Origin: Gemmatimonadales bacterium
Lineage (GTDB): Bacteria > Gemmatimonadota > Gemmatimonadetes > Gemmatimonadales > GWC2-71-9
Assembly (NCBI GenBank): GCA_039794085.1
Contig: JBDIWC010000008.1
Coordinates: 32,001-96,000, forward strand
Reading direction: 5' to 3'
DNA length: 64,000 nt
Shown one piece after another: positions 1 through 20,786 of the stretch. The notes under the pieces are model-generated. The model made no database searches. It was not told where the DNA came from and saw nothing but the letters and a program-made list of their open reading frames with translations. Each line of letters starts with the position of its first letter. Within the stretch, counting starts at the first letter, position 1. Made by a program: the position numbers and the translations under genes.

Positions 1-25
1 GGAAATAGGTTGCGGATCGTACATT
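1..25 (+). promoter_or_regulatory. Putative cassette promoter, copy 1 (-10 TACATT at 20-25; -35 cut by window edge)
   Basis: GG-N17-TACATT, positionally homologous to TTGCGG-N17-TACAAT in copies 2 and 3. Confidence 0.6.
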
Positions 26-83
26 CTCTCACGACTGGGCTGTCGGGGGGCACGTTCCCCTGCAGCTCCAATACTTGTTAGGC
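1..83 (+). repeat. Platform copy 1: end of integrase (TAG at 6-8), promoter and attI-like site (crossover GTTAGGC 77-83)
   Basis: Aligns with 4678-4761 and 5672-5755; all share GCAGCTCCAATACTTGTTAGG; truncated by the window edge. Confidence 0.85.
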
Positions 84-101
84 ATCATACCGAGGTAGCG
101 T

Positions 102-773
102 GTGACGACCACCTCCCCCTTCCCTAGAGCCGTTGAGGCCGCACAGAGCTACCGCCGTCGAGTTGGGCCGCGGCTTCGACAGAGTCAGACGGCTGCTCTT
201 GACGAAGTGGATGCGCGGCTCCAGCGTCTAGACGCGGAATACGCGGAGCTGGTGTCCCTGAATAGTCTGCTGCTAGCTCAGGATGGGCAGGGACTCGTGA
301 TGCACCGCAATCCCGTCAGCGGAGAGGTCACAGTCAGGTTCGGCAGTGCGGGGCCGGGATTCACGCTCCAGCCTGCAGATCCAGCCGTACCAATCGAACT
401 TGACAGCCACTCACGAGTTGGCGGGTATTTGCCGGGAAGCTCTTCTGCGGACGGTGCCGAGACCCCAGGTTACAAAAGGCGAATGGAGGAGTTGCTAGAG
501 GCTTTTTACAGCGGTGCCCATAGGATTCAGAAATTGATGCGGGAGGTTCTGGGTAAGCCGCATAAAGGATCGATGGGCATAACGACAGTTCGGAACCATC
601 TCGTCGAGCATCCCTCCACAGGCTCGTTGTATTCCTTTGGCTACTCCACTAATGGGCCCGTCGTGAAGCCTATCCAGCGCGGCCAGCCGGAATGGATCGA
701 CGCTGGCCTGTTCGCAAACGCCGAGGAATTTGTTACTTCGCTCGAGACTGCTTTTGGTGGAGCGATGCACTGA
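102..773 (+). CDS. Cassette 1: hypothetical protein with HEPN-like motif (RNHLVEH)
   Basis: 223-aa ORF, GAGGT RBS before GTG, fills the cassette; Rx5H motif after a helical segment. Confidence 0.75.
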   Translation: MTTTSPFPRAVEAAQSYRRRVGPRLRQSQTAALDEVDARLQRLDAEYAELVSLNSLLLAQDGQGLVMHRNPVSGEVTVRFGSAGPGFTLQPADPAVPIELDSHSRVGGYLPGSSSADGAETPGYKRRMEELLEAFYSGAHRIQKLMREVLGKPHKGSMGITTVRNHLVEHPSTGSLYSFGYSTNGPVVKPIQRGQPEWIDAGLFANAEEFVTSLETAFGGAMH

Positions 774-774
774 T

Positions 775-870
775 GCCTACCCCGCGCTTCCTGCCGACGG
801 CGCGGTCAGGTTCAGCCCGTTGGCATTAGAATCCAGTGGCGCGCCGCAGCAGAAGCGCGCTGCGTTAGAG
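775..870 (+). other. attC site 1 (R'' mutated to GCCTACC; R' GTTAGAG)
   Basis: Arms CGCGCTTCCTGC and GCAGAAGCGCG pair with one extra base; lies directly after the stop codon. Confidence 0.85.
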
Positions 871-904
871 AGCGCCACAGCAACCGACAGTGTGGGCGAG
901 GGCA

Positions 905-1966
905 ATGAAGACGATCCTCGATATCGTGCAGGAGTTCCGGGAGTCTGACCCGCCGCTGACCTATTTGGGCCAGGACGAGTCAGTGGCCTACGGCAAGTTC
1001 CTTGAGTTCGAGGTGCTGGACTGGAACGGAACGACGCGGATCGTCCCGAGCGAGGCCCTGAATCTCCCAGGGCGCCCTGGCAACCGCTCCTTCATGTACA
1101 GAGGCCAAACGACTCGTTACCCGACTTGTCAGGCATCCCTGCTTCGAGGTGCACCGGACGACGAGTGGCAGGTCAAGGCGCTTTTGACCCTTGAGCGTTT
1201 CCGTGTGGCGGAACTTGAGCTTGTTCTTCGCGAACACCCCTTCAAGGCGGTAGTGGACAAGCGCGGATTCCACGTCGACTACCACGGTCTCGCTCAGCAC
1301 TACGGCATCCCCACGTCATTGTTGGACCTGACTTCGAACGTGGAAGTTGCGGCCTTCTTCGCCGTCGCGAGGTGGGATCGCGAGGCGGGGTCCTTCCGTC
1401 CGATGGAGAGCGGAACCGGTGTCATGTATCGCTTCGACTGGGCTGCGTTCGGCCCGGAGTACGCGAAGTTCTTCGAGCCAGTCGGGTTCGGACCAGGACT
1501 GAGACCCGCCCGCCAGCACGCATGGACGTTTCGGCTGCGGCACGGCGTCGACTTTCAGAATGTCCCCCACGTGTCGGCGTTCGAATTCAGCCATTCCAAG
1601 GCAGCGTCTCTCGAGATGTTCGAGAGGTTCGACGGCGGCGCATGGCTGTACCCGCCGAATTGTCTGGCCTCGCTCGTCGAGAAGCTTCGGGACTTGCCAT
1701 TCGTGACGATGCACGCGATCCGACACGCCGCGAAGCAGGACGGCCAGAGGTCGGAAGACATAGAGACGGGCGCGGAAAGAGCGGCCCACTTCCTCAACGC
1801 CAAGCTGGGCCTGGACATCGTGGACGGGTACGAGCTTCAACCCGAGGAGGAAGATCTTGCGGTCGCCCAGCAGCAAGCATCCGCGCTGGACGAGTCGCTT
1901 GGAACGTTACGCTTCGGGTGGCGGCTTGTTCGGACGGCGGGCAGCGACGACGAGCCGGCGCGGTGA
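905..1966 (+). CDS. Cassette 2: FRG domain protein
   Basis: Motifs YRGQ and LAQHYGIPTSLLDLTSNVEVAAFFA. Confidence 0.9.
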   Translation: MKTILDIVQEFRESDPPLTYLGQDESVAYGKFLEFEVLDWNGTTRIVPSEALNLPGRPGNRSFMYRGQTTRYPTCQASLLRGAPDDEWQVKALLTLERFRVAELELVLREHPFKAVVDKRGFHVDYHGLAQHYGIPTSLLDLTSNVEVAAFFAVARWDREAGSFRPMESGTGVMYRFDWAAFGPEYAKFFEPVGFGPGLRPARQHAWTFRLRHGVDFQNVPHVSAFEFSHSKAASLEMFERFDGGAWLYPPNCLASLVEKLRDLPFVTMHAIRHAAKQDGQRSEDIETGAERAAHFLNAKLGLDIVDGYELQPEEEDLAVAQQQASALDESLGTLRFGWRLVRTAGSDDEPAR

Positions 1967-1972
1967 GGCGCT

Positions 1973-2036
1973 ATCTAACACACTGTTGCAGCGGACAGTC
2001 CGCTGCACGGCCCGCCGCTGACTCGGCGCGTTAGTC
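1973..2036 (+). other. attC site 2 (R'' ATCTAAC, R' GTTAGTC)
   Basis: 64-bp site with TTGCAGCGG...CCGCTGA arms between intact AAC and GTT cores. Confidence 0.9.
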
Positions 2037-2060
2037 GTCAGCACTTGCCTGGAAGCAGCT

Positions 2061-3098
2061 ATGGTCCTTGATCCCGAGACAATCATCGCGACTGCAGCCC
2101 TAAGCGAAGTGGGTAAGGGGGTCGTCAAGGGGCTCTCCCAGCTCGGTCGCAAGTGGATAACGGACCTGTTCGGAGACACCAAGGGCCCGGCCGTGGCGAA
2201 AGCCGAGAGCAACATGGCCGCGTTCCTCATTCAGCTTGCAACCAGGATTGGCCGTCTCGAGCAAGCAGCTGCTGATTCGGCTGCCCTCGAGGCCCGCCTA
2301 CGTGACGCCCAAGCGGACCCGGACGTTCTCGTCACCACCAAACTGGCTGTCCTCGCTGCGGCCCGGTCCTCCGATTCTACCAAGCGTGATCTGCTCGTTG
2401 AAGTCGTCACCCGACGCATTGCCTCGGCATCGGAATCAGCAGAGGCTATTGCCGCGAACGTAGCGGCAGAAGCTGTTCCAAGAATGAACGCAGCCGACCT
2501 CGACACGGTTGGCCTCCTCGCCCTCGTAGCAGGGGTCCGACCGAGCATCCTGCCCCCCGATTCTCCCCCGCCCGATAAGCCTGACAACGCGCCTCTTGTG
2601 GGAATTGGCCGGTGGTACTGGGCAGCGACGCAGGAGCTAATCGCTGACCTTTGGTCCGGTCACGATCGACTCCTGCACTTGGCATCGATTGGTCTTTGCT
2701 CTATCCACCTTGGTCTCAGGCGCGATCTATTCGATGAACTGCGACGCGGAATACCTTCATGCCAAGGCCTTGCCGAGGGCCACCACATTGTTGACATCAA
2801 TCGGTTCCTCACGTTCTTTGACGCAGGCAGGAATCTGAGGCGTGCATGGCTTCAAGGAATGCAGGAAGCGCTGTTGACCCCCGCTGGCATTCTCATTGGC
2901 AGGACTGTCGTTGACATCCGGCTGCCAACAGACGTTCCCAACCGGAGGTGGGTATCGGACGCGAGCGCGCTACGGGAAGCCCTAGCCAGGTCATCGCCCT
3001 GGGATGGCCATACCCTAAATAGGCGTTTTGTGGAACTCCTTGATCAGGAGCTTGCAAGGCGGGTCACCGAGGCGAAGCGCGCGCAAGGGCGGCTCTGA
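2061..3098 (+). CDS. Cassette 3: LPO_1073/Vpar_1526-like (Abi-alpha-like) helical protein
   Basis: 345-aa ORF; segment DPDV...AAARSSD...DLLVEVVTRRI...AVPRM resembles that family; family call from recall. Confidence 0.6.
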   Translation: MVLDPETIIATAALSEVGKGVVKGLSQLGRKWITDLFGDTKGPAVAKAESNMAAFLIQLATRIGRLEQAAADSAALEARLRDAQADPDVLVTTKLAVLAAARSSDSTKRDLLVEVVTRRIASASESAEAIAANVAAEAVPRMNAADLDTVGLLALVAGVRPSILPPDSPPPDKPDNAPLVGIGRWYWAATQELIADLWSGHDRLLHLASIGLCSIHLGLRRDLFDELRRGIPSCQGLAEGHHIVDINRFLTFFDAGRNLRRAWLQGMQEALLTPAGILIGRTVVDIRLPTDVPNRRWVSDASALREALARSSPWDGHTLNRRFVELLDQELARRVTEAKRAQGRL

Positions 3099-3099
3099 C

Positions 3100-3143
3100 G
3101 GCTGCCGCCACACCCCCCGCAGCTCAAATCCAGCTCGTTACGT
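3100..3143 (+). other. attC site 3, degenerate (left arm largely lost; R' GTTACGT)
   Basis: CTGACGGCTGCC at 3095 is a decayed complement of cassette start GTTAGTCGTCAG; right arm GCAGCTCAA...CGTTACGT remains. Confidence 0.65.
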
Positions 3144-3163
3144 TGCATCCCGAGGTGCCTAGA

Positions 3164-3775
3164 ATGACCTACTACGATATCGATCGCCTTCGTCGCCTAC
3201 CTCTGACAACAGGTCTGCTGCTACTGACCTGGTCTGCGGCAGCTGTGAGTATCGTGGCGCCCGCGAACGTGCAAATCCTCGGCCTGCCATTCTCGATTGG
3301 CCGCCCGGAACTCCTTCCGATTGGCCTGGCCGTCGCGGCAGTCTACGGCGGGCTCCGCTACTACTACTATGCGATGATGCTCGAGCTGAGTCCCTATCGC
3401 CGCCGCCGCGACCTCCTTGATGGGCTTTGGGCAAAGGGGACAAAGAAGCCCGGCCTGAGTGGAACCTACTGGGGGCCAATAGCCTTCGAGGGATCGAGGT
3501 CGTTCGGGAAGTCTTCTGAGGCAGAAGCATACGGGAAAGAAGTAGCCTTGGCATTTCCGAAGTTTGCAGGTGCGCGAGTTACGTCACGAGCTGAGTATCG
3601 CCCAGGCGTTGACCAAGATGGGGATGAGTACACGAGTTTCGAGGTCTTTCTGAACATTCCCGTGCGTTGTCGCGCGGCCGCCCTTCTTCAAGATCTAGAC
3701 TACTCCTCGCCAGCATGGCTGCCGTTGTCTAGCGTGCTGCTGTACGTCCTACGTTCTCTGCCGAACGCCACCTAG
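3164..3775 (+). CDS. Cassette 4: hypothetical membrane protein (two N-terminal and one C-terminal hydrophobic segments)
   Basis: GAGGT RBS then ATG; ORF fills the cassette. Confidence 0.75.
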   Translation: MTYYDIDRLRRLPLTTGLLLLTWSAAAVSIVAPANVQILGLPFSIGRPELLPIGLAVAAVYGGLRYYYYAMMLELSPYRRRRDLLDGLWAKGTKKPGLSGTYWGPIAFEGSRSFGKSSEAEAYGKEVALAFPKFAGARVTSRAEYRPGVDQDGDEYTSFEVFLNIPVRCRAAALLQDLDYSSPAWLPLSSVLLYVLRSLPNAT

Positions 3776-3906
3776 CAGAGGGTGACAGTCTGGCAGCCGG
3801 GAGGCGCTCCTCTTCCGGCGTCGCGGCCGTGCCCACATGTTGATTGGTGGATGGCGCGGCCGCTCAGTTCCCAGACGGCTGCCGCTGAAACCCAAAGTCG
3901 TTAGCA
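3770..3906 (+). other. attC site 4 (R'' decayed ACCTAGC; R' GTTAGCA)
   Basis: Inner inverted repeats GGCAGCCG/CGGCTGCC and GCGGCCG/CGGCCGC; ends GCTGAAACCCAAAGTCGTTAGCA. Confidence 0.7.
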
Positions 3907-4340
3907 GCCCGGAGTGCCAGCGCGGGGCAGCATCGAAGCCTGGGGATCGCCGGTCAGGTGATCCCGGATCATCCGCCGCAACAGCTTTCCTGAGGGTCCC
4001 CGAGGCAGCATCGGCGCAAAGAGAACCCGGCGCGGAACCTTGTAGGGCGCGAGACGCCCCCGGCAGTGGGCAATAAGGGACTCGGCTCCGGCCTCCACGC
4101 CGGGACCAAGGACCACAACCGCCACCACCTCCTCATCGAGCCGGTGATCGGGCACGCCCACCACGGCCACATCGGCCACGGCGGGATGGCCCAGCAGCGC
4201 CTCCTCCACCTCCCGCGGCGACACATTGAATCCGCCATGGAGGATGAGATCCTTCTTCCGGTCCACGATGAAATAGTCCCCGTCCTCATCCCGCGTCGCG
4301 ATGTCCCCGGTCCGGAGCCATCCATCATGAAGCGCCTCGG
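3901..4340 (-). pseudogene. 3' fragment (440 bp) of the acyl-CoA ligase gene, diverged copy of 7536-7975
   Basis: Colinear and indel-free with about 38 mismatches by hand count; no 5' part. Confidence 0.95.
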
Positions 4341-4685
4341 ATGTTCGTGCGTTTCTGGGATGGTTGGCGGAGCAGCGCCGGGTGGCGGCCTCGATTCAGA
4401 ACCAGGCTGGGGGTATAGCGGAGCTCCGAACGAAGTATCCGGCGGCGGGCCGGTCGTGGTCCGGGCAGTGGCTCTTTCCGGCGAGAAACGACGTCGCGTC
4501 AATCCTTCGCCACCCACCTTCTCGAACGAGGCTACGATATCCGGACGATCCAGGCACTGCTGGGTTATCGGGATCTGTCCAGCACGATGATCTACACTCA
4601 CGTCCTGAACCGGGGAGGCCAAGGAGTCCGGAGTCCGGTGGACGACCTGGCGGAGGGGTCCGGTCCGGCCGTCTTGCGGAACCAG
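4340..4685 (+). pseudogene. intI: Integron integrase remnant with internal deletions and a frameshift
   Basis: Encodes DVRAFLGWLAEQRRVAASIQNQA, then [17 protein letters not shown] (IntI-specific region), then in another frame [45 protein letters not shown]. Confidence 0.93.
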
Positions 4686-4702
4686 GCTGCGGACCGTACA
4701 AT
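4674..4702 (+). promoter_or_regulatory. Putative sigma70 cassette promoter, copy 2
   Basis: TTGCGG (4674-4679), 17 nt, TACAAT (4697-4702). Confidence 0.7.
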
Positions 4703-4761
4703 CTCTCACGAATGGGCTGTTCGAGGGCATGTTCCCCCGGCAGCTCCAATACTTGTTAGGC
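4686..4761 (+). other. attI-like site, copy 2 (crossover GTTAGGC 4755-4761)
   Basis: Homology to copies 1 and 3 ends at the GTTAGG core, where a different cassette begins. Confidence 0.8.
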
Positions 4762-4806
4762 GTGTTCGATCGGCTGCTCGACAACCCGGCCTCAAGGGGA
4801 TAATCA

Positions 4807-5034
4807 ATGACGTACAAAGTGGTTCCGTTCAATGCAGCTCTCGGAAACTTGGAGGATGCCTCCCACCTTGCCGCACACATCGAGGGGATCATTACCAGCC
4901 ATGCGGCCGACGGGTGGGAATACGTTGGCGTTCATCAGCTCCAGACGTTCAAGGCAGGGTCGGGTGGGTGCTTCGGTCTTGGGGCTACTCCACCGACGAC
5001 CGTCGCGACGGAGTTCGTTGTGTTCAGGAAATGA
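4807..5034 (+). CDS. Cassette 5 gene A: small DUF4177-like protein
   Basis: 75 aa, MTYKVV...AADGWEYV...FVVFRK pattern; AGGGGA RBS. Confidence 0.75.
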
Positions 5035-5360
5035 GGCATCTTTTTCTCCTCCTGATTCGTGCGTACTGGGCCTTCTGGCCACACGGACTCAGGCGGCAGT
5101 GTCTCTATCGCGAGTCCTGCTCGCGACATGTGTACCGTGTCGCGAACGAGGTAGGAGCGTCTGCTGGTTTTCGAGCCCTGCTCTACCGCGTCCGGAAATG
5201 CCGACCTGGTTACACCATGTCCGCCAGTGAGACCGGAATGGGCCTTCTTCTGCGAGACGGGTCGTTCCTACCAGGGCACATGGTCGCCCCTGGTGTGATC
5301 ACGAGAGTGCCCAGTCCTCGGCGCGGGGCCGACTGGCGCACTCACGGACGAAACGCTTAA
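5031..5360 (+). CDS. Cassette 5 gene B: YidD-like (haemolytic-domain) protein
   Basis: ATGA overlap with gene A; LLLIRAYW...[12 protein letters not shown]...RVRKCRPG matches the three-Cys YidD pattern. Confidence 0.75.
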
Positions 5361-5527
5361 CTTCCAAATGGAGCCGACGAGCGCTGGCTCATAGACGCGC
5401 GCAGCTCATTTTTGCACGCCCTATGTCGCAGTAGCCGACAGCGGCGGCTAGAACCTCAATGAACCAGACCACCGGTTCAACGATCCGCCTGTGCACGCGT
5501 TAGCGGGCGCCTTCTTGCTCACCTAAC
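5355..5527 (+). other. attC site 5 plus attC debris
   Basis: R'' GCTTAAC 5355-5361; arms AAATGGAGC/GCTCATTT; expected R' missing; later GTTAGCG (5499-5505) and an orphan ACCTAAC (5521-5527). Confidence 0.6.
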
Positions 5528-5536
5528 CACTGTTTG

Positions 5537-5679
5537 GGACGATCCTGGAATTCCTGGGTCATCGGGATGTGTCCACGACGATGATCTACCCGCACGTCCT
5601 GAACCGGGGAGGCCGAGGGGTCCGGAGTCCGGTGGACAACCTGGCGGAGGGGTCCGGCTCGGCCGTCTTGCGGAATTAG
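5537..5679 (+). pseudogene. intI: Integron integrase C-terminal fragment
   Basis: [50 protein letters not shown] (TAG 5677-5679). Confidence 0.9.
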
Positions 5680-5696
5680 GCTGCGGACCGTACAAT
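5668..5696 (+). promoter_or_regulatory. Putative sigma70 cassette promoter, copy 3
   Basis: TTGCGG (5668-5673), 17 nt, TACAAT (5691-5696). Confidence 0.7.
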
Positions 5697-5755
5697 CTCT
5701 CACAAATGGGCTGTTCGAAGGGCATGTTCCCCTGCAGCTCCAATACTTGTTAGGT
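5680..5755 (+). other. attI-like site, copy 3 (crossover GTTAGGT 5749-5755)
   Basis: Homologous to copies 1 and 2 up to the GTTAGG core. Confidence 0.8.
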
Positions 5756-5797
5756 GGACAGTCTGACATGACCCCCAGCACGCGATGAGGAGACGAG

Positions 5798-6796
5798 ATG
5801 AAGGTATTCATCAGCTGGAGTGGTGAGCGGAGCCACCTTCTTGCGCAGGCGCTGCACGGCTGGCTGCCCCTCGTCTTGCACTATGCCAAGCCTTGGCTGT
5901 CCGAGGCGGACGTCTCGGCGGGCGACCGATGGGCCCAGGCCGTGGCGAAGGAGCTTGAGTCCTCGAATTTCGGCATCATCTGTGTGACCCCGGAGAATCT
6001 CGGCTCTCCATGGGTTCTCTTTGAGGCCGGAGCCCTTGCGAAGTCTATGCAAGGCGCCAAAGTCATCCCGCTGCTCTTCAACTTGGAGTTCAGCGATATC
6101 AGCGGCCCGTTAGCCCAGTTTCAGGCCAAGAAGGTCGAGCGAGGTGGTTTGGCTGAGGTCATCAACTCCCTCAACCAATCAGCGGAACAAGGCGTGCCTG
6201 AGGATCGGGCGAAGCAGCTCTTCGGTGCATTGTGGCCAGAGCTTGAGAAGCAACTGGAATCGATCCCGGACGAGGCGCCTACCGAGAAGCACATGAGGCC
6301 GCAGCACGAGATCATGGAAGAGCTTGTGACCGGTGTCCGAGGACTCGACGTGCGATTTCGAGACCTCGAAGCCTCCGTTTCAGAGCCGAGCCTCCGGTCG
6401 CGTCGCCGCCGATTCCGCCACTTCCATCCAATGATGTTTGACGAAATGGCGATGATGGTCTCCGAGGAAGGGGACGACCCCATCTCGCTTCTCATGTTTG
6501 GTGGACTCCTCCGAGACGATTTCCCTTGGCTGTACGAGATTATCGTTGAGGCCTACCGTGAGGTCCGAGATGGGGACGAGAAGGCGGCACAGAAGGCAAT
6601 CGACCGCCTTCGTCGCGTCATGAAGGCCGTTGGCCGCGGTCAGTTTATGGAGGAGTTCGCCGGGTCGAAGGAAGGACACATGATGATGATGGAGATGCCA
6701 ATGATGCTGGACCACTTTCTACATCGCTTCGAGTCTCGCCGGCTCAAAGGTAAGCCCGACACGGACGCGGGCGCGGCGGATGATTCCAAGGAGTAA
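5798..6796 (+). CDS. Cassette 6: TIR domain protein with helical C-terminal region
   Basis: MKVFISWSG...PWLSEADVSAGDRW...SPWVLFEAGAL with the putative catalytic Glu; GAGGAG RBS. Confidence 0.9.
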   Translation: MKVFISWSGERSHLLAQALHGWLPLVLHYAKPWLSEADVSAGDRWAQAVAKELESSNFGIICVTPENLGSPWVLFEAGALAKSMQGAKVIPLLFNLEFSDISGPLAQFQAKKVERGGLAEVINSLNQSAEQGVPEDRAKQLFGALWPELEKQLESIPDEAPTEKHMRPQHEIMEELVTGVRGLDVRFRDLEASVSEPSLRSRRRRFRHFHPMMFDEMAMMVSEEGDDPISLLMFGGLLRDDFPWLYEIIVEAYREVRDGDEKAAQKAIDRLRRVMKAVGRGQFMEEFAGSKEGHMMMMEMPMMLDHFLHRFESRRLKGKPDTDAGAADDSKE

Positions 6797-6798
6797 CC

Positions 6799-6859
6799 GC
6801 CTAACAGCAGCATGAGGAGGCCGGGCGCCGCGCGCCGCCGCTGATGCTGAGCGTTACGT
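6799..6859 (+). other. attC site 6 (R'' GCCTAAC, R' GTTACGT)
   Basis: Arms CAGCATGAG/CTGATGCTG; CCGCCTAAC complements cassette start GTTAGGTGG with one mismatch. Confidence 0.85.
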
Positions 6860-6887
6860 AGCAACAACCTTCGGCGGACGGCAGCGC

Positions 6888-7415
6888 ATGGCGACAATAC
6901 TAGAACGCCAGAAAGCGGCTCAGATGCGCGCCGCCGAACGCGCCACGAAACGGGCGCTGTCGCTCTCAATTGCGCTACTTCGTGCCGACGCTCTCTACGA
7001 AGCGTTCACGACCGCAGCCAAAGACGTCGATGCGGCGGATGCCGGCGCGCGCGCAGAAGCGAGTGATGCAGCGCTCAAGCTGCGCAACACCGCATTCTCT
7101 CGCGCCGACGCAATGGCAACGGTGCATTTCGGTGCCCTCTACGCTGTCGCCGATAAATGGCAGGAATGGAAGTTCAGCGACCCAACGGTCGACAAACTCC
7201 TCGCCGATCCAAACCTCACGTTGCTAAAACAACATCGCCACGCGGTGTTTCACGCTGATCACTACGACCACGGGAGCTTCAAAGCTCTCGGAGAAAAGCC
7301 CGGCGCCTTTGAGTGGGCCGCGCGCACCGCCGCCGCCATCCGGGCGTACCTGAAGCGGTTTCACGCCGATCCGGCCAAGCATGTCATCGACCACATCAAG
7401 CGCACCGGCTGGTAG
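6888..7415 (+). CDS. Cassette 7: hypothetical protein with HEPN-like motif (RHAVFH)
   Basis: 175-aa helical ORF; GALYAVADKW...DKLL...LKQHRHAVFH. Confidence 0.75.
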   Translation: MATILERQKAAQMRAAERATKRALSLSIALLRADALYEAFTTAAKDVDAADAGARAEASDAALKLRNTAFSRADAMATVHFGALYAVADKWQEWKFSDPTVDKLLADPNLTLLKQHRHAVFHADHYDHGSFKALGEKPGAFEWAARTAAAIRAYLKRFHADPAKHVIDHIKRTGW

Positions 7416-7436
7416 TGCGCGGTGCCGCGCGCCGCT

Positions 7437-7541
7437 TCCTAACAGGCGTTGATGCTGACCAACGCGGGTCTGTCGGAAGCGGTGGCTTGCGTTGCCGCAT
7501 TTTGTTGATAAGCGTTGGCAGCATAACACTATTCGTTAGCA
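7437..7541 (+). other. attC site 7 (R'' TCCTAAC, R' GTTAGCA)
   Basis: Arms GTTGATGCTGACCAACGC/GCGTTGGCAGCATAAC with extrahelical bases; R' overlaps the ligase stop codon. Confidence 0.9.
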
Positions 7542-9110
7542 GCCCGGAGTGCCGGCGCGGGGCAGCATCGAAGCCTGGGGGTCGCCGGCCAGTTGATCCC
7601 TGATCATCCGCCGCCTCAGCTTTCCCGAGGGACCCCGCGGTAGTACCGACACAAACAGAACCCGGCGCGGAACCTTGTAGGGCGCGAGACGACCCCGGCA
7701 GTGGGCAATTAAGGACTCGGCTCCGACTTCCACCCCGGGACAAAGGACCACGACCGCCACCACCTCCTCGTCGAGCCGGTGATCGGGCACACCCACCACG
7801 GCCGCATCGGCCACGGCGGGATGCGCGAGCAACACTTCCTCCACCTCCCGCGGCGACACGTTGAATCCGCCGTGGAGGATGAGATCCTTCTTCCGGTCCA
7901 CGATGAAGTAGTCCCCGTCCTCATCCCGTGTCGCGATGTCCCCGGTGCGGAGCCATCCATCATGAAGCGCCTCGGCCGTGGCCTGGAGCTGGTTCCAGTA
8001 TCCCTTCATGAGCAGAGGTCCGCGGATTTCGATCTCCCCCCGCACTCCACACTCGCCGAGCACCTGTCCCCCGTCATCCACCAACCGGAACTCCACGCCG
8101 TCGAGCGGGATCCCGATGCTCCCCGCCTTGCGCGGCCGACCGATCCGGTTCTGCGACGCCACCGGTGACGTTTCGCTCAGGCCGTACCCCTCCAGCACGG
8201 CCACTCCGAAGCAAGCCTCGAAGGCGCGCATGACCTCCGCCGGCATCGGGGCCGCCCCCGAGATACACTGCCGAAGGGAGACGGGTACCGGAAGCCTAAG
8301 TTCCTCCACATAGCGGTACAGCGAGAGGTACATGACCGGCACGGCGGCGAGGAACGTGACCGCGTGACGATGTATCGCCTCCATCGCCGCGGCCGGAGTG
8401 AAGCGCGGCAGGAGCACGGAGGTGCCCCCCGCCAGGAGAACCGCATGCTGGATGACCGTGTGTCCAAAGCTGTGGAAGAGCGGGAGCACGCCGAGTGCCA
8501 CCGTGGCCGGGCCATCCGGCAGGAAACCCGCTGCCACGGCACGCGCATTCCAGAGGAGGCTCCCGTGGGAGAGTTCCACTCCCTTGGGGCGCCCGGTGGT
8601 ACCGGAGGTGTAGAGAATGAGCGCGGTGTCCTCCGGGCCCGCGTCGTGTCCCGTCACCACAGGTTCAGCGGCACAGGCCTCATCCCAGCGAGTCACACCT
8701 GGATCAGGACCCGAGGGGACGGCTCCCACCGCGATCACGGGCACCGCCACTCCCATCCGATCAAGAGCGCCACGCGCCGCTCCGAGAGACTCGACCGACG
8801 CGACGACCAAACGCACTCCCGCGTCGGAAAACTGCCACCCCAGCTCGTCGGCCGTGAGCTGCGGGTTGAGAGGGACGAGTATGCACCCCGCCTCGTGTCC
8901 GGCGAAACAGGCCACCGTGAACTCAGCACAGTTGGGAAGAAGAATCGCGAGTCGATCCCCGGGGTGCAGCCCGATCTGACGAAGATGGGCCGCGAGACCC
9001 ACCGCCGTTTCGTGAAGCCGCCGGGCGGTCCAAATCTCGTTCCGGACGATGAGGGCAGGATGGTCGGGGGACGTGCGAACCCGATCCCGGAGGATGGAGG
9101 CGAGGGTCAT
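7536..9110 (-). CDS. Long-chain fatty acid-CoA ligase (AMP-binding enzyme)
   Basis: YTSGTTGRPKG, EGYGLSETSP and GWLRTGD motifs. Confidence 0.92.
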   Translation of the reverse strand: MTLASILRDRVRTSPDHPALIVRNEIWTARRLHETAVGLAAHLRQIGLHPGDRLAILLPNCAEFTVACFAGHEAGCILVPLNPQLTADELGWQFSDAGVRLVVASVESLGAARGALDRMGVAVPVIAVGAVPSGPDPGVTRWDEACAAEPVVTGHDAGPEDTALILYTSGTTGRPKGVELSHGSLLWNARAVAAGFLPDGPATVALGVLPLFHSFGHTVIQHAVLLAGGTSVLLPRFTPAAAMEAIHRHAVTFLAAVPVMYLSLYRYVEELRLPVPVSLRQCISGAAPMPAEVMRAFEACFGVAVLEGYGLSETSPVASQNRIGRPRKAGSIGIPLDGVEFRLVDDGGQVLGECGVRGEIEIRGPLLMKGYWNQLQATAEALHDGWLRTGDIATRDEDGDYFIVDRKKDLILHGGFNVSPREVEEVLLAHPAVADAAVVGVPDHRLDEEVVAVVVLCPGVEVGAESLIAHCRGRLAPYKVPRRVLFVSVLPRGPSGKLRRRMIRDQLAGDPQASMLPRAGTPGC

Positions 9111-11426: not shown

Positions 11427-12181
11427 CCGGCCGCCGCCGTACCTGGGGACACCGGCAGGGTGACCCGGCGTTCCATGAACAGGGGAAGCACCGACAGGGT
11501 GCTCTCGGCCGCCACGGCCACGAGGTCCTCTCCCAATCCGTTTCTCATCAGGTCCCGGCCGGCCCGGGAGCGTTCGAGGGGTCGTGTCCAGTTGTGCCCG
11601 TAACGGCGGACCAGATCGAGGCCGACCTGCGCGGCATCATTCAGGCCCCGGCGGATCCACCGACGGCCCAACGCCTCGAACAGCAGGCGCCCCGCGGTGT
11701 AGGCATCCTCCAAGGCAAAGGCGGATTCCCGGCCGGCACAGAGGATGAGCAGGGACCGGGTGTCGGCGATCAGTTCCCGGGCCCGGCGGGCCGCGGTCTC
11801 GAGGTTGAGTGGAGAGGCGACGAGAACCACCGAGGCGCCCTGGGTGGCGAGCAGCGCCCCGGTCCCGTTCGTGGTGCACATGACGAGTGTCTTCCCCGCC
11901 ACGACATCCGGGGTCATCTCGCGCGGGCTGTTTCCGAGAGCGAACCCCTCGATGCGAACCGTATTCCTCTCGCCGGCGAGGAGGACGTCCGCGTTCTCGA
12001 GGTTTTGCGCGATCCGGATCGCATCTTCGGTGGAGGCGGCGGGAATGACCGCCCGAGCCCCCGCCGCGAGGGCCGCGCAGATGGTGCTCGTGGCGCGAAG
12101 GGTGTCGATGACGACGACCGGTCGCCCATGCACGTCGTTGGCGGCCAGACCGTGCGGAGTGAAGGCGACGTCGAGTCTCAT
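11423..12181 (-). CDS. comB: 2-phosphosulfolactate phosphatase family protein
   Basis: [30 protein letters not shown] overlap with accC stop. Confidence 0.9.
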
Positions 12182-16823: not shown

Positions 16824-18793
16824 TATCGCTTGAGTCCCTTGAGCCAGTCGTTGAAATGCTGGAGATCTTCGCTGTCGGAGGCGGAAGGGGTGCCGGAGGG
16901 GGGGGCGACCACCGGCGGCCGGTCGCTGAAGAATTCATCGAAGGAGGGAGAGGTGCCTTCCCCCTCGTCCTGGGCGGCCGCAGGAGCGTTGGCATCCGAG
17001 GGGTCATCCCCAAAGACGGAATCGAGGCCGAAGTGTTTGTCCGCGGGCCGAGTCGGTTCTCCCTCCTTCGGCCGGTCCATGGCCGGGGGAGTGATGGCCA
17101 AGGGGGAGGTCGGTTCCCTCACGGCGAGAACACCGGCGAGAAAATCGCCCAACGATTCCCCCCCCGTGCTGGATGCCGCGAACCGGGCCGGAGCGGGTTC
17201 GGCGGACGGAGTGTCATCCTCCGCGGCGGGGGGCGGAGTGAGGCGGCCGATGGCCTCCTGCAGCCGGGCATTCTCGGGATCACGGCGGGCCAGCTCGGTG
17301 TACACCGCCAGGGCAAGTTCGTCGTGGCCCTGCCGCAGGAAGATCTCCGCCATGCTCTCGGTGACGACCAGCGCGTCCTCATCATCCTGGTCCTGGTCCG
17401 ATGCCTCATCGCCGGGTTCCTCGAGCTCCTCGGCTGACATCTCCATCAGGGCCAGTTCCGGGGTCTCCCCTCCCTCGGCATTTCCCTCCACCGTCCGGTC
17501 ATGTGATTCCTCCGGCGGCTCCGCCGCCGCGAAGGACCGATCGCGCTCGGTGTCACTCGGGAGGGAGGTCTCGCTCACGGCGGGCGGGCCCTCGGGCCAG
17601 GTTTCCGGCCCCACTTCCTCCCGATGTTCGGGGAACCCGGTGTCGGTCGGATCCGGCAAGGGCAGTGCCGCGTCGACAACGCTGGCGGGGGTGTCGGGAT
17701 CGTCAGGGATCCTCCCCGTCAACGGTTCGCCGTCCTCGGCCGGGACGTCCGACTCCCCCGTTTCCGGGGGCAGCTCCGCCGGCGTCCAGGGATTGGCGGA
17801 CAGATCGTCCTCCGCGTCCAGAAGCCGCAGAGTCCCCTCGTGCAGGTCGTCGGCATCCGGGGCCGGGACCTCTCCCGGTTCTGACTCGGCCACCAGGTCC
17901 ACCCGAACCCCTGGCACCTCGGAGTCATCCTCGGAATCGGGAATCGCCGACTCCGTCCGGGAGACCCACCCCGATTCGGCATTGGGCTCCGTCGTGTCGG
18001 CCTCCATCTCCGTCAGATCCTTCAAGGTGGGCACCACGTCGATGTCCATCGACGGGAGGGAGAGGCCATCCCCTTCCGAATCCGTTTCCCCATCCGGCGC
18101 GCCGGCCTCCTCGGCCGGTGCGGAGAGCGTCTCGCTGTCATTGGCGAGGGCGAATTCGTTCCTGGCGCCGGGGGAGGACCACTGCTCGTCGATGTGCAGG
18201 TCGAGGGGGTCGGTCTCGGTGTCCACCTCGACCAGCGGGAAGCGGTCGTCAGGGATCTCCCGGTCGACCTCGGATTCGATGAGGTTCACCAGGGGAAAGG
18301 CCGATTCCCCGAGTGTGGAGTCACTCGGAGAAGATGGCGGCCCCATGTCCGAAACCGGAGGGGCATAGTCCGTGGCCGGAGCGGGCGGTGCCTTCGCCTG
18401 CAGTTCTGCGAGTCGTGCCGTTGCCTCATCGTCGGTCGGATCGGCCTCGAGGAGACGTCGCAAATGGAGGACGGCTTCCTGCGGTCGCCCGGACCGGAGG
18501 GAAATCTCGGCCAGACCCCGAAGGGCAATCAGGTTGAGGGAGTCGAAGGAGAGGACCAGAGCAAAGGCGGAGGCCGCCATCGTGTCGTCTCCGGCGGCCA
18601 GAGCGCACCGGCCGCGAACAATGTGCGCCGGGACATAATCCGGGTGATGGGCAAGACCCAGTTCGAGGGTCTGGAATGCCTCATCCAGCCGCCCGGCCTT
18701 GCGATATGCCTCGGCCAGAGGAGCAAAGGTAAGCCCCTGCATGTTCTCGAGCCACCGTCGTTCGAGCTTCTCGATTTCGCCTGGACTTGCCAT
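16823..18793 (-). CDS. TPR protein with long acidic linker
   Basis: N-terminal TPRs ([12 protein letters not shown]), Asp/Glu/Pro-rich middle, [13 protein letters not shown] repeat, C-terminal FNDWLKGLK. Confidence 0.85.
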
Positions 18794-18950
18794 CCGCCGG
18801 TTTCCGTAAGTTGTTGTCAGTGCGACACTCAGACTAGCCCGATCGCCGGGCGGTGTCAACGGGTGTGGACCAGGGATCCTTGAGGAAAGTCCCGGCCCTG
18901 CTTAAACTTATCGCCTTCATCTGCCACCGGATCAGGAGTGTCCGCCGATC

Positions 18951-20786
18951 ATGATGCAAGCGTTTCGAAACAGTGCCAAACCCATCGTGCTGATCCTGAC
19001 CGTCTCGTTCTTCGGCTGGCTCGTTTTTGACCTGAGCGGCCTCAGTGGAGGGACAGGCCTGCTGACTCAGACCTCGGTCGGCAAGATCAATGGACGCACG
19101 ATTGATGCCCGGCTCTTCCAGGAGGCCGTCCAGCAGGCCACGGAGGTGCAGCAACGTCAATCCCCAACACCACTTGGGGTATCTGACCAAGCCCAGATCC
19201 GGGACCAGGTGTGGGAGCAGTTCATTCAATCCACCATCCTGGATGAGGAGTACCGCCGGAGGGGACTGCAAGTTTCGGCAAACGAGATCGCCGATGCAAT
19301 ACGAAACGTTCCCCCCCAGGAGATCCGAGCCGTCCCGACCTTTCAGACCGACGGCCAGTTCGACATGTCCAAGTACCAGGCCTGGCTCGGAACGACCGAG
19401 GGAATGAGTTATGTCCCGGTCCTGGAAGCCCGGTATCGCGACGAGATCCTCCGATCCAAACTGGTCCAGGACCTCATTTCCACGCTCTACGTGTCGGACG
19501 CTCAACTGTGGCAGCAGTACCGGGATGCCAACGACTCGATCTCCGTGGAGCTTGCCACCATCGACCCTCTCTCGGTCATCCCCGATACCGAGGCGCCGGT
19601 GACGGATAGCGAGGTCGAGAACTGGTTCCGCTCCCACCGGGATGACTTCCGGCGCCAGAGAACGGCCTTTCTCAGCTTCATTGCCGTCGACAAGCAGGTC
19701 AACGCGTCCGACTCCGCCGCTGCATTGGCCAGGGCGGAGGCCCTCCGGGCGGAGATCCAGGGTGGAGCCCCGTTCGCGGAAGTCGCCCAGCGGGAATCGT
19801 CCGACACCGTTTCCGGCAGCCGCGGAGGTGATCTCGGCGAGTGGACCCGGAACACCTTCGACCCCGCCTTCGAGGCGGCCGCCTTCCGGCTCCCGCTCAA
19901 CACGGTTTCGGAGCCGGTCCTGACGCCGTTCGGCTATCACCTCATCGAGATCACGAGCCGGAAGGGTGACACCATCTCCGGCCGGCACATTCTGGTCCCG
20001 ATCGAGCTCGCCGGCTCCCACCGCGACCTGGTGGACGCTCGCGCCGACAGCCTGGAGTTGCTGGCCGCCGACCGGCTGGACCGGGCAGCACTCGATACCG
20101 CCTCCCGGGCTCTCGGGCTTCCCATCGTCGAAAGCGGGCCGGTCGTGGAGGGTGGCTTCGCTCCGGTGCACATCGACGCGACGATCTGGGCCTTCCAGGC
20201 CAAGCGGCATGAGCATAGCCCGGTTTTCGAGGCCCCCGCATCGTACCTGGTCTACCGGGTAGACAGCCTCTGGCCGGCTGGCGTTCCCGCGCTGGGGGCC
20301 ATCCGCGGGGAGGTGATTGCGGCGGTTCGAGCGGACAAGAAGAGGGCCCAGGCCCGGCGGTTGGCCGACTCCCTCGCAGCACGGGTTCGAGCAGGCACGA
20401 CTCTCCGGGAGGCGGCAGCGGGACTCGGCGTTCCGGTCGAACCCCTGGGCCCCTTCACTCGGTACACCGCCCCGCTCCAGAGCGGACTGACCCTGGGAAC
20501 GGCCTTCGGGTTGGAACCGGGGCAGACGAGTGGCACCATCGAAGAGAATGACCGTTTCTACCTGGTTCACGTCCGGGAACGATGGGCCGCCGACAGCAGC
20601 GCCTTTGCCAACTCCCTGGACAGCCTCCGCACCTCGACGTTGCAGACAGTTCGGCAGAATTATGTGCAGCGCTATTTTGCGGCCCTGCGATCCCAGGCCA
20701 AGCTCGCTGACTATCGGTCAGAGCTCTATCGGACGGCGGCTCAGAACGAGGCTCTCGCGCCCCCCGTTCCTCCTCCGGCCTATTGA
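18951..20786 (+). CDS. ppiD: PpiD/SurA-like peptidyl-prolyl isomerase
   Basis: N-terminal membrane anchor, SurA-N region, parvulin motifs GGDLGEW and TPFGYHLI. Confidence 0.88.
   Translation: MMQAFRNSAKPIVLILTVSFFGWLVFDLSGLSGGTGLLTQTSVGKINGRTIDARLFQEAVQQATEVQQRQSPTPLGVSDQAQIRDQVWEQFIQSTILDEEYRRRGLQVSANEIADAIRNVPPQEIRAVPTFQTDGQFDMSKYQAWLGTTEGMSYVPVLEARYRDEILRSKLVQDLISTLYVSDAQLWQQYRDANDSISVELATIDPLSVIPDTEAPVTDSEVENWFRSHRDDFRRQRTAFLSFIAVDKQVNASDSAAALARAEALRAEIQGGAPFAEVAQRESSDTVSGSRGGDLGEWTRNTFDPAFEAAAFRLPLNTVSEPVLTPFGYHLIEITSRKGDTISGRHILVPIELAGSHRDLVDARADSLELLAADRLDRAALDTASRALGLPIVESGPVVEGGFAPVHIDATIWAFQAKRHEHSPVFEAPASYLVYRVDSLWPAGVPALGAIRGEVIAAVRADKKRAQARRLADSLAARVRAGTTLREAAAGLGVPVEPLGPFTRYTAPLQSGLTLGTAFGLEPGQTSGTIEENDRFYLVHVRERWAADSSAFANSLDSLRTSTLQTVRQNYVQRYFAALRSQAKLADYRSELYRTAAQNEALAPPVPPPAY

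Follow-up and report, generated by a model that had tools for sequence, protein, structure and literature searches.

How can a single chromosomal integron come to hold more than one attachment site for gene cassettes (attI)? The question is raised by the left end of a 64,000-nt stretch of DNA from a Gemmatimonadales bacterium (contig JBDIWC010000008.1, positions 32,001 to 96,000 of the forward strand; hereafter the window), where the end of an integrase gene (intI), a predicted promoter and an attI-type site recur as a unit, here called a platform, each followed by its own cassettes. An initial annotation described the region as an array of three stacked platform-plus-cassette modules, and the layout of the repeats bears this out. 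The explanation that we consider probable is that the stack consists of allelic integron loci from sister lineages, joined head to tail by illegitimate recombination and decayed thereafter.

The 3′ part of platform B1 occupies 1..83 on the plus strand, with the tail of an intI remnant, the predicted promoter and the attI core (63-79); the remnant begins upstream of the window, at -412. Platform B2 (4338..4761, plus strand) consists of intI pieces, a predicted promoter and the attI core at 4741-4757, and platform B3 (5537..5755, plus strand) of the last 140 nt of intI (from nt 866 of the intact gene), a predicted promoter and the core at 5735-5751. The block was thus found again, with substitutions, at all three sites reported for it (1-83, 4338-4761 and 5537-5755). 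In pairwise comparisons, the copies are 85-88% identical up to the GTT (BLASTN E-values of 1e-65 to 1e-84), and the homology stops 3-4 nt past it, in agreement with the earlier claim that it ends at the GTT core of a recombination site. Of the cassette counts given initially (4, 1 and 2), those for B1 and B3 stand, but B2 is followed by one cassette with two open reading frames (ORFs) and by two remnant cassettes.

The claim that each platform has an integrase 3′ end, a promoter and an attI of its own holds for the sites in attI position and, as predictions, for the promoters; the integrase ends, however, are pseudogene remnants. Alignment to the intact gene of a sister species of the same genus (genome G001), to which they are 87-93% identical, shows that all three are broken by internal deletions and frameshifts. 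The B1 remnant covers nt 580-1005 of the intact gene, with several frameshifts and 8 gaps in 510 nt. That of B2 survives as three pieces on the plus strand (4338-4407, 4424-4483 and 4491-4685, corresponding to intact-gene nt 158-227, 628-687 and 814 onward) and retains a 5′ piece of intI that is absent from module 1, so B2 is not a plain copy of module 1. The intact G001 integrase (335 aa; TIGR02249, 444 bits at a cut-off of 265) is followed by the same tail and core and then by other cassettes. Its score of 362 on NF011946, which we take to be the model marking class 1 intI1, lies under the cut-off of 435 and sets it apart from class 1 integrases of the type found in In104, an integron whose second intI1 is truncated. 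A full-length IntI was not found in the studied genome (G000, 94.7% complete), where the intact G001 gene has its orthologue on contig C22, broken by a frameshift and by a deletion of 70 bp; a near-full-length IntI-like match is present in 75 of 150 genomes of the family. intI is co-oriented with the cassettes, and both the promoter and attI come after its 3′ end (the "inverted" layout).

The predicted attI crossover in B1 is at 77/78. In four copies behind dead integrases, the 17-nt core has 0/68 mismatches compared with 75/752 in the neighbouring sequence (P 0.001), for a region that was picked after the alignment had been viewed and for copies that are related to one another. An invariant core in dead copies suggests continued use in trans, and several of the attI sites may, judging from this conservation, be active integration points. 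An 18-nt core lies directly 3′ of the intact IntI stop codon both in G001 and in an unrelated Gemmatimonadales record, and it follows intI in two named Gemmatimonadota records in which the surrounding tail differs; that the same core stands after intI despite a different tail supports its identity as attI, and its occurrence in these records suggests a Gemmatimonadota host for the locus. In two Gemmatimonadales genomes an orphan core heads cassettes with no intI found nearby (L137:8001 and L139:4613); the second of these genomes also encodes, on a different contig (L143), an intact IntI that has this core. The scan of genome contigs with this 18-mer yielded 119 stretches, mostly chance occurrences; among the 80 listed, 5 belong to Gemmatimonadota and 3 are accompanied by an IntI-like match. 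One of these three, an archaeal record, was set aside, the core lying inside the recombinase gene. Searching metagenome contigs with a pattern for the attI region gave 0 matches.

The B-type promoter is a prediction. In B1 the -35 box at -3..2 and the -10 box at 20-25, with a 17-nt spacer, were read by eye on the plus strand, and those of B2 (4674-4679/4697-4702) and B3 (5668-5673/5691-5696) were read from the sequence of the same strand. A pair resembling TTGCGG-17 nt-TACAAT is thus visible in all three copies, under the threshold of the promoter scan, and the boxes are conserved no better than the background (3/48 mismatches).

The origin of the modules is indicated by what lies between them. 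The chromosomal right flank of the array is a full acyl-CoA ligase (AMP-binding) gene (7536..9110, minus strand), the stop codon of which overlaps the last GTTAG core. The final 146 codons of the gene recur in front of platform B2 (3901..4340, minus strand; 91% identical to 7536-7975), and this 440-bp copy is joined to intI via a 3-nt microhomology. Because the modules carry such pieces of the right flank, the growth by stacking that had been proposed is upheld as stacking, but it points to recombination between allelic loci rather than to new integron activity. The copy is free of stops, indels and frameshifts. Compared with the full gene, its ratio of non-synonymous to synonymous divergence (dN/dS) is 0.18 at a synonymous divergence (dS) of 0.25 (Fisher P 9e-7), and with G001 as third sequence, 7 of its private changes are synonymous and 3 non-synonymous (P 0.006 versus neutrality). 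A dS of 0.25 matches most orthologue pairs of G000 and G001 (mostly 0.1-0.3, range 0.05-0.45), and at the protein level the copy differs at 10/128 residues from the full gene and at 11-13/128 from the orthologues of three other species. The low dN/dS, the lack of indels and the orthologue-like distance suggest that, until recently, the copy belonged to a working orthologous gene in another lineage.

We therefore picture the stack as having arisen in several steps. The lineage has co-oriented integrons and hence a promoter and attI placed behind the integrase 3′ end. DNA of the locus from another lineage would have entered the cell, probably by transformation, a process that feeds cassettes into chromosomal integrons (PMC12614218). 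Homologous recombination on one side and the ligase-intI microhomology on the other would then have placed module 1, the ligase piece and module 2 in tandem. Every integrase copy has decayed through deletions and frameshifts, as seen in the remnants. The promoter and attI may have been kept as they express the first cassettes and were perhaps still served in trans by an intact IntI at another locus. An active IntI is predicted to excise DNA between direct attI repeats; since no intact IntI remains, the stack is expected to persist. IntI1 fully excises attI1-aadB-attI1 and reinserts the excised unit (PMC12901181), which leads to the prediction that stacks survive only where the cognate IntI has been lost.

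Other forms of the locus add to this picture. At the orthologous position, G001 has a toxin-antitoxin (TA) pair and one intI remnant that combines the deletion of B2 with the left-end lesions of B1; the sequence after this remnant is repeated at several contig ends of G000, and we read it as an insertion sequence (IS). The ligase end of G001 adjoins a different cassette. A groundwater contig from another study (run X5), known from alignment tables alone, presents a single-platform form with the TA pair, an intI remnant whose best alignment is to B2, a 1.3-kb stretch of other DNA, then cassettes 3 (about 95% identical) and 4, and the full ligase gene adjoining cassette 4. The conflicting lesions show, as we read the alleles, that recombination has taken place among them. 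Across the two genomes, the synonymous distance between G000 and G001 varies by locus from 0.05 to 0.45, a mosaic that suggests frequent inter-lineage recombination.

Stacking is also found elsewhere in the studied genome, which has 11 platform tails on 6 contigs. Contig C14 (L003, 23290-26370) carries two stacked platforms of another sequence type (A-type) that are 92% alike and share a frameshift but have different toxin-antitoxin-like first cassettes, a pair that we count in favour of both stacking and the use of the docks. Contig C11 (L004, 24003-41898) probably holds a further stack, with several A-type intI pieces over 15 kb and, before one of them, a decayed flank-gene duplicate with indels. 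In G001, contig C230 (L036:3840-4500) carries a stack of two intI tails, of yet another type, on either side of one small gene, at a site whose orthologue in G000 (C18) has a single tail. On contig C1 of a genome from another genus (G087), an intact IntI is followed 13.8 kb downstream, in the same orientation, by a second tail, 75% alike, and an attI-like core (L087:4880-5050 and 18760-19780); it counts as a stack only loosely and neither confirms nor refutes that stacks and intact IntI exclude each other. When 126 genomes were queried with a 31-aa IntI tail, the studied genome gave the most matches (8) and was alone in having two within 20 kb on one contig (0/125 others), for a query that fails to detect B1, one tail of G001 and the second tail of G087 and is hence no proof of absence, 41 further genomes of the family being outside the search.

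Several points weigh against the joining of allelic loci as the source of the stack. An extended C-terminus, absent from the five closest orthologues, is common to the ligase copy and the full gene; the extension (7536-7595 in the full gene) results from the loss, compared with G001, of about 50 nt, which brought the stop onto the last cassette core, and its presence in both means that either the donor was a close sister, none of which was found, or the duplication began in place. The counts are small, with 10 private changes, and selection on a stand-alone product is a possible alternative reason for the low dN/dS, as a 121-aa ORF spanning the AMP-binding C domain lies within the copy. The left flank of B3 is deleted and its origin conjectural, and the lesion patterns of B1, B2, G001 and X5 conflict, so that they allow more than one order of events and more than one choice of resident module. 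Genes for ComEC and DprA, counted in favour of the proposed import, are present in the studied genome, but they also occur in 10/14 and 11/14 control genomes, respectively, and do not demonstrate competence. Finally, the region for the attI conservation test was chosen post hoc among related copies, the B-type promoter falls below the scan threshold, and promoter and recombination activity are predicted only.

An in-place tandem duplication, in which sister-chromosome slippage at the ligase/intI microhomology was followed by divergence of the copies, turnover of cassettes and perhaps, later, the exchange of one copy for a foreign allele, would account for the shared C-terminal extension, the common frameshift of the C14 pair and the decayed flank-gene pseudogene on C11, and many pseudo-integrons have been ascribed to intragenomic duplication (Nemergut et al., PMC2426708). 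A copy frozen in this way should, however, decay neutrally, whereas the ligase copy has its 7 synonymous to 3 non-synonymous changes and no indels, and B2 holds intI sequence that module 1 lacks; we regard this alternative as doubtful.

We consider it unlikely that IntI moved attI-bounded mega-cassettes, excising a circle between two attI copies and inserting it at another att site. Such movement is in keeping with the behaviour of attI1-aadB-attI1 (PMC12901181) and with the 11 platform tails on 6 contigs. It would also fit the TA pair and the 43 nt of a gene in the block upstream of B1, which flank the C22 integron as well and call for a transfer between non-homologous loci in permuted order. 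However, the three left junctions at the locus are deletion or microhomology joints, none being a G/TT crossover after an intact attC, and the route needs a prior stack and so cannot start the process. Moreover, an intact IntI was not found in the genome, and the joint expected from excision was not seen in the contigs of the source sample.

The initial annotation had itself raised the possibility of a chimeric metagenomic assembly, and the genome is indeed a metagenome bin, for which the source-sample contigs break inside B1 and B3 and none of the listed pieces spans the entire stack. Nevertheless, three runs from a single hot-spring sample (probably that from which the genome came, hence non-independent) tile the locus contiguously at an even depth of about 7-8 in X1 and X2, with no alternative letters in the listed pieces, and the ligase/intI junction and the B3 junction each lie within single contigs in both of these runs. 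The longest exact repeat is 35 nt, the contamination of the bin is 0.07%, and the outer synteny of YraN and the ligase is kept in a distant congener, where the two are 2 kb apart with no integron between them. The stack is real and a chimeric assembly unlikely, so that we give very little credence to a mixture of co-occurring strains as its explanation. A reading of the repeat as an atypical attC or cassette segment, the second objection anticipated, is hardly credible: its GCAGCT...GTT end is similar to the right arm found in local attC sites, but no attC-like fold above shuffled controls was found in six platform segments on both strands (z -1.5 to +0.3), five B-type segments have no inverse-core partner for the GTT at the far end, and the core directly follows the stop of an intact IntI in G001 and in the unrelated record.

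Having preferred the joining of allelic loci, we can compare the locus with known systems. Integrons are on record in Gemmatimonadota (PMC8618304), and integrase decay is common (PMC2426708, PMC3510236, bioRxiv 10.1101/2025.06.18.660453). The locus works like an inverted-integrase chromosomal integron of the Treponema denticola type but has no functional IntI. It shares with this group, which is reported to be paraphyletic (PMC4889954), an intI transcribed toward attI and cassettes bounded by attC (PMC3607928, PMC4889954); it differs in having three attI of one type and a fourth of another, with all integrases dead, whereas Wu et al. state a single attI for each integron. Stacked platforms in a chromosomal integron had been thought undescribed, and no account was found in the literature searched, in which subscription journals were mostly outside the coverage, but In104 of Salmonella genomic island 1 (SGI1) is known to combine, at one locus, two attI sites that each have a cassette of their own, with duplicated conserved segments that collapse by homologous recombination (PMC7056807). 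The repeats of In104, a mobile clinical element, are near-identical, whereas the present locus is chromosomal, with copies 12-15% diverged and the end of a housekeeping gene as the duplicated flank. That Elsaied et al. 2011 described double attI sites was not supported on checking.

Pseudo-integrons and attC clusters devoid of integrases (CALINs) likewise have decayed intI genes, several per genome, and arrays that may be served in trans (PMC2426708, PMC4889954, bioRxiv 10.1101/2025.06.18.660453), but in the accessible parts of these sources they have a single platform per locus, and neither stacking nor orphan attI conservation is described there. Delta-attI-type cassettes and attI1-ORF-attI1 resemble the modules in placing attI sequence within an array as a potential recombination partner (PMC12901181); they are single resistance cassettes in which attI pieces replace attC, whereas the modules here are multi-kb units in which a promoter is combined with an integrase stub and a piece of the flank. 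The effector-immunity arrays of the Vibrio cholerae type VI secretion system are alike in the serial horizontal addition of modules, for which homology-facilitated illegitimate recombination has been proposed, and in having gene-end remnants as markers (PMC5361080), but they are not integrons and have no stacked site-specific recombination sites.

Integron models assume one attI and one cassette promoter (Pc) per array, with the distal cassettes silent. Stacked docks would place several cassettes, including a candidate anti-phage cassette with a TIR domain, in first position at once. As read from its sequence, the locus is natural evidence that attI sites may outlive their integrase and be used in trans, and that whole arrays of a sister species may be added without loss of the resident one, two points that can rarely be put to the test; tools that detect only an intact IntI and attC clusters would likely call it one integrase-less array and miss the structure. 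A wider proposal, which we put forward tentatively, is that in this lineage the integron platform itself is mobile: selection would retain integrase-less docks of promoter and attI, which would be served in trans, would stack up through the capture of alleles from other species and would move as attI-bounded mega-cassettes. A single locus would thereby gain several first positions with strong expression, and arrays a second means of growth that does not depend on the integrase.

Upstream of the window, a fourth platform of the A-type (about -2850 to -2490; L001:2150-2510) comprises an intI N-terminal stub, a tail, a predicted TTTACA-17-TACACT promoter that scores 9/12 in the scan and an attI-like core, followed by two cassettes. 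Between it and B1, at -1228 to -413 (L001:3770-4590), lie an AbrB-type gene, a toxin gene, which we take to be PIN-like, and, over 43 nt, part of a dehydrogenase-like gene, each with its homologue in the right flank of the C22 integron. At synonymous sites the toxin gene is near-identical to that of G001, which suggests recent exchange. The locus yielded no transposase ORF or repeated IS, in an inspection that used no IS library, and the three junctions showed neither IS nor ISCR elements. Many short heptamer tandem repeats occur in intergenic regions of contigs C17, C36, C10, C40 and others, including just before the A-type stub.

The cassettes all lie on the plus strand. Cassette 1 (102..870) has a 223-aa ORF of no known family (102-773) and an attC at 775-870 with a degenerate inverse core. 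Cassette 2 (905..2036) encodes an FRG-domain protein (905-1966; PF08867, with a weak PADLOC PDC-S15 match) and has its attC at 1973-2036. Cassette 3 (2061..3143), with a 345-aa ORF of no known family (2061-3098), has a degenerate attC ending at 3143, and its relatives were not found in the metagenome-contig search; cassette 4 (3164..3906) has an ORF of no known family (3164-3775) and an attC at 3770-3906. Behind B2, cassette 5 (4807..5425) contains a DUF4177 ORF (4807-5034, below the Pfam cut-off) and a YidD-like ORF (5031-5360), with an attC from 5355 and a degenerate core end. It is followed by two gene-less remnants (5426..5536), the last attC of which is cut after the left arm and fused to the B3 integrase remnant. 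Behind B3 lie the TIR cassette (5798..6859; TIR-domain protein 5798-6796, PF13676, PADLOC TIR-TM E 3e-62; attC 6799-6859) and the last cassette (6888..7541; 175-aa ORF of no known family, 6888-7415; attC 7437-7541). End-to-end hairpins with weak shuffle z-scores (-0.2 to -2.3) form at 3760-3906, 6799-6859 and 7437-7541; the other attC sites and their limits were read from the sequence, several being degenerate, and the attC scan missed some evident sites.

The cassette genes of the window were not found in G001, G002 or G087, and an Rfam scan of 1-9000 returned three chance matches only, below gathering scores. The TIR- and FRG-domain cassettes are candidate anti-phage genes, and a second FRG homologue is located on contig C24. 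Over the attC of the TIR cassette (L001 about 6780-6860, depth bin 11617-12100), the read-contig depth reaches 44-53, a jump indicating that other DNA in the sample contains this attC sequence too.

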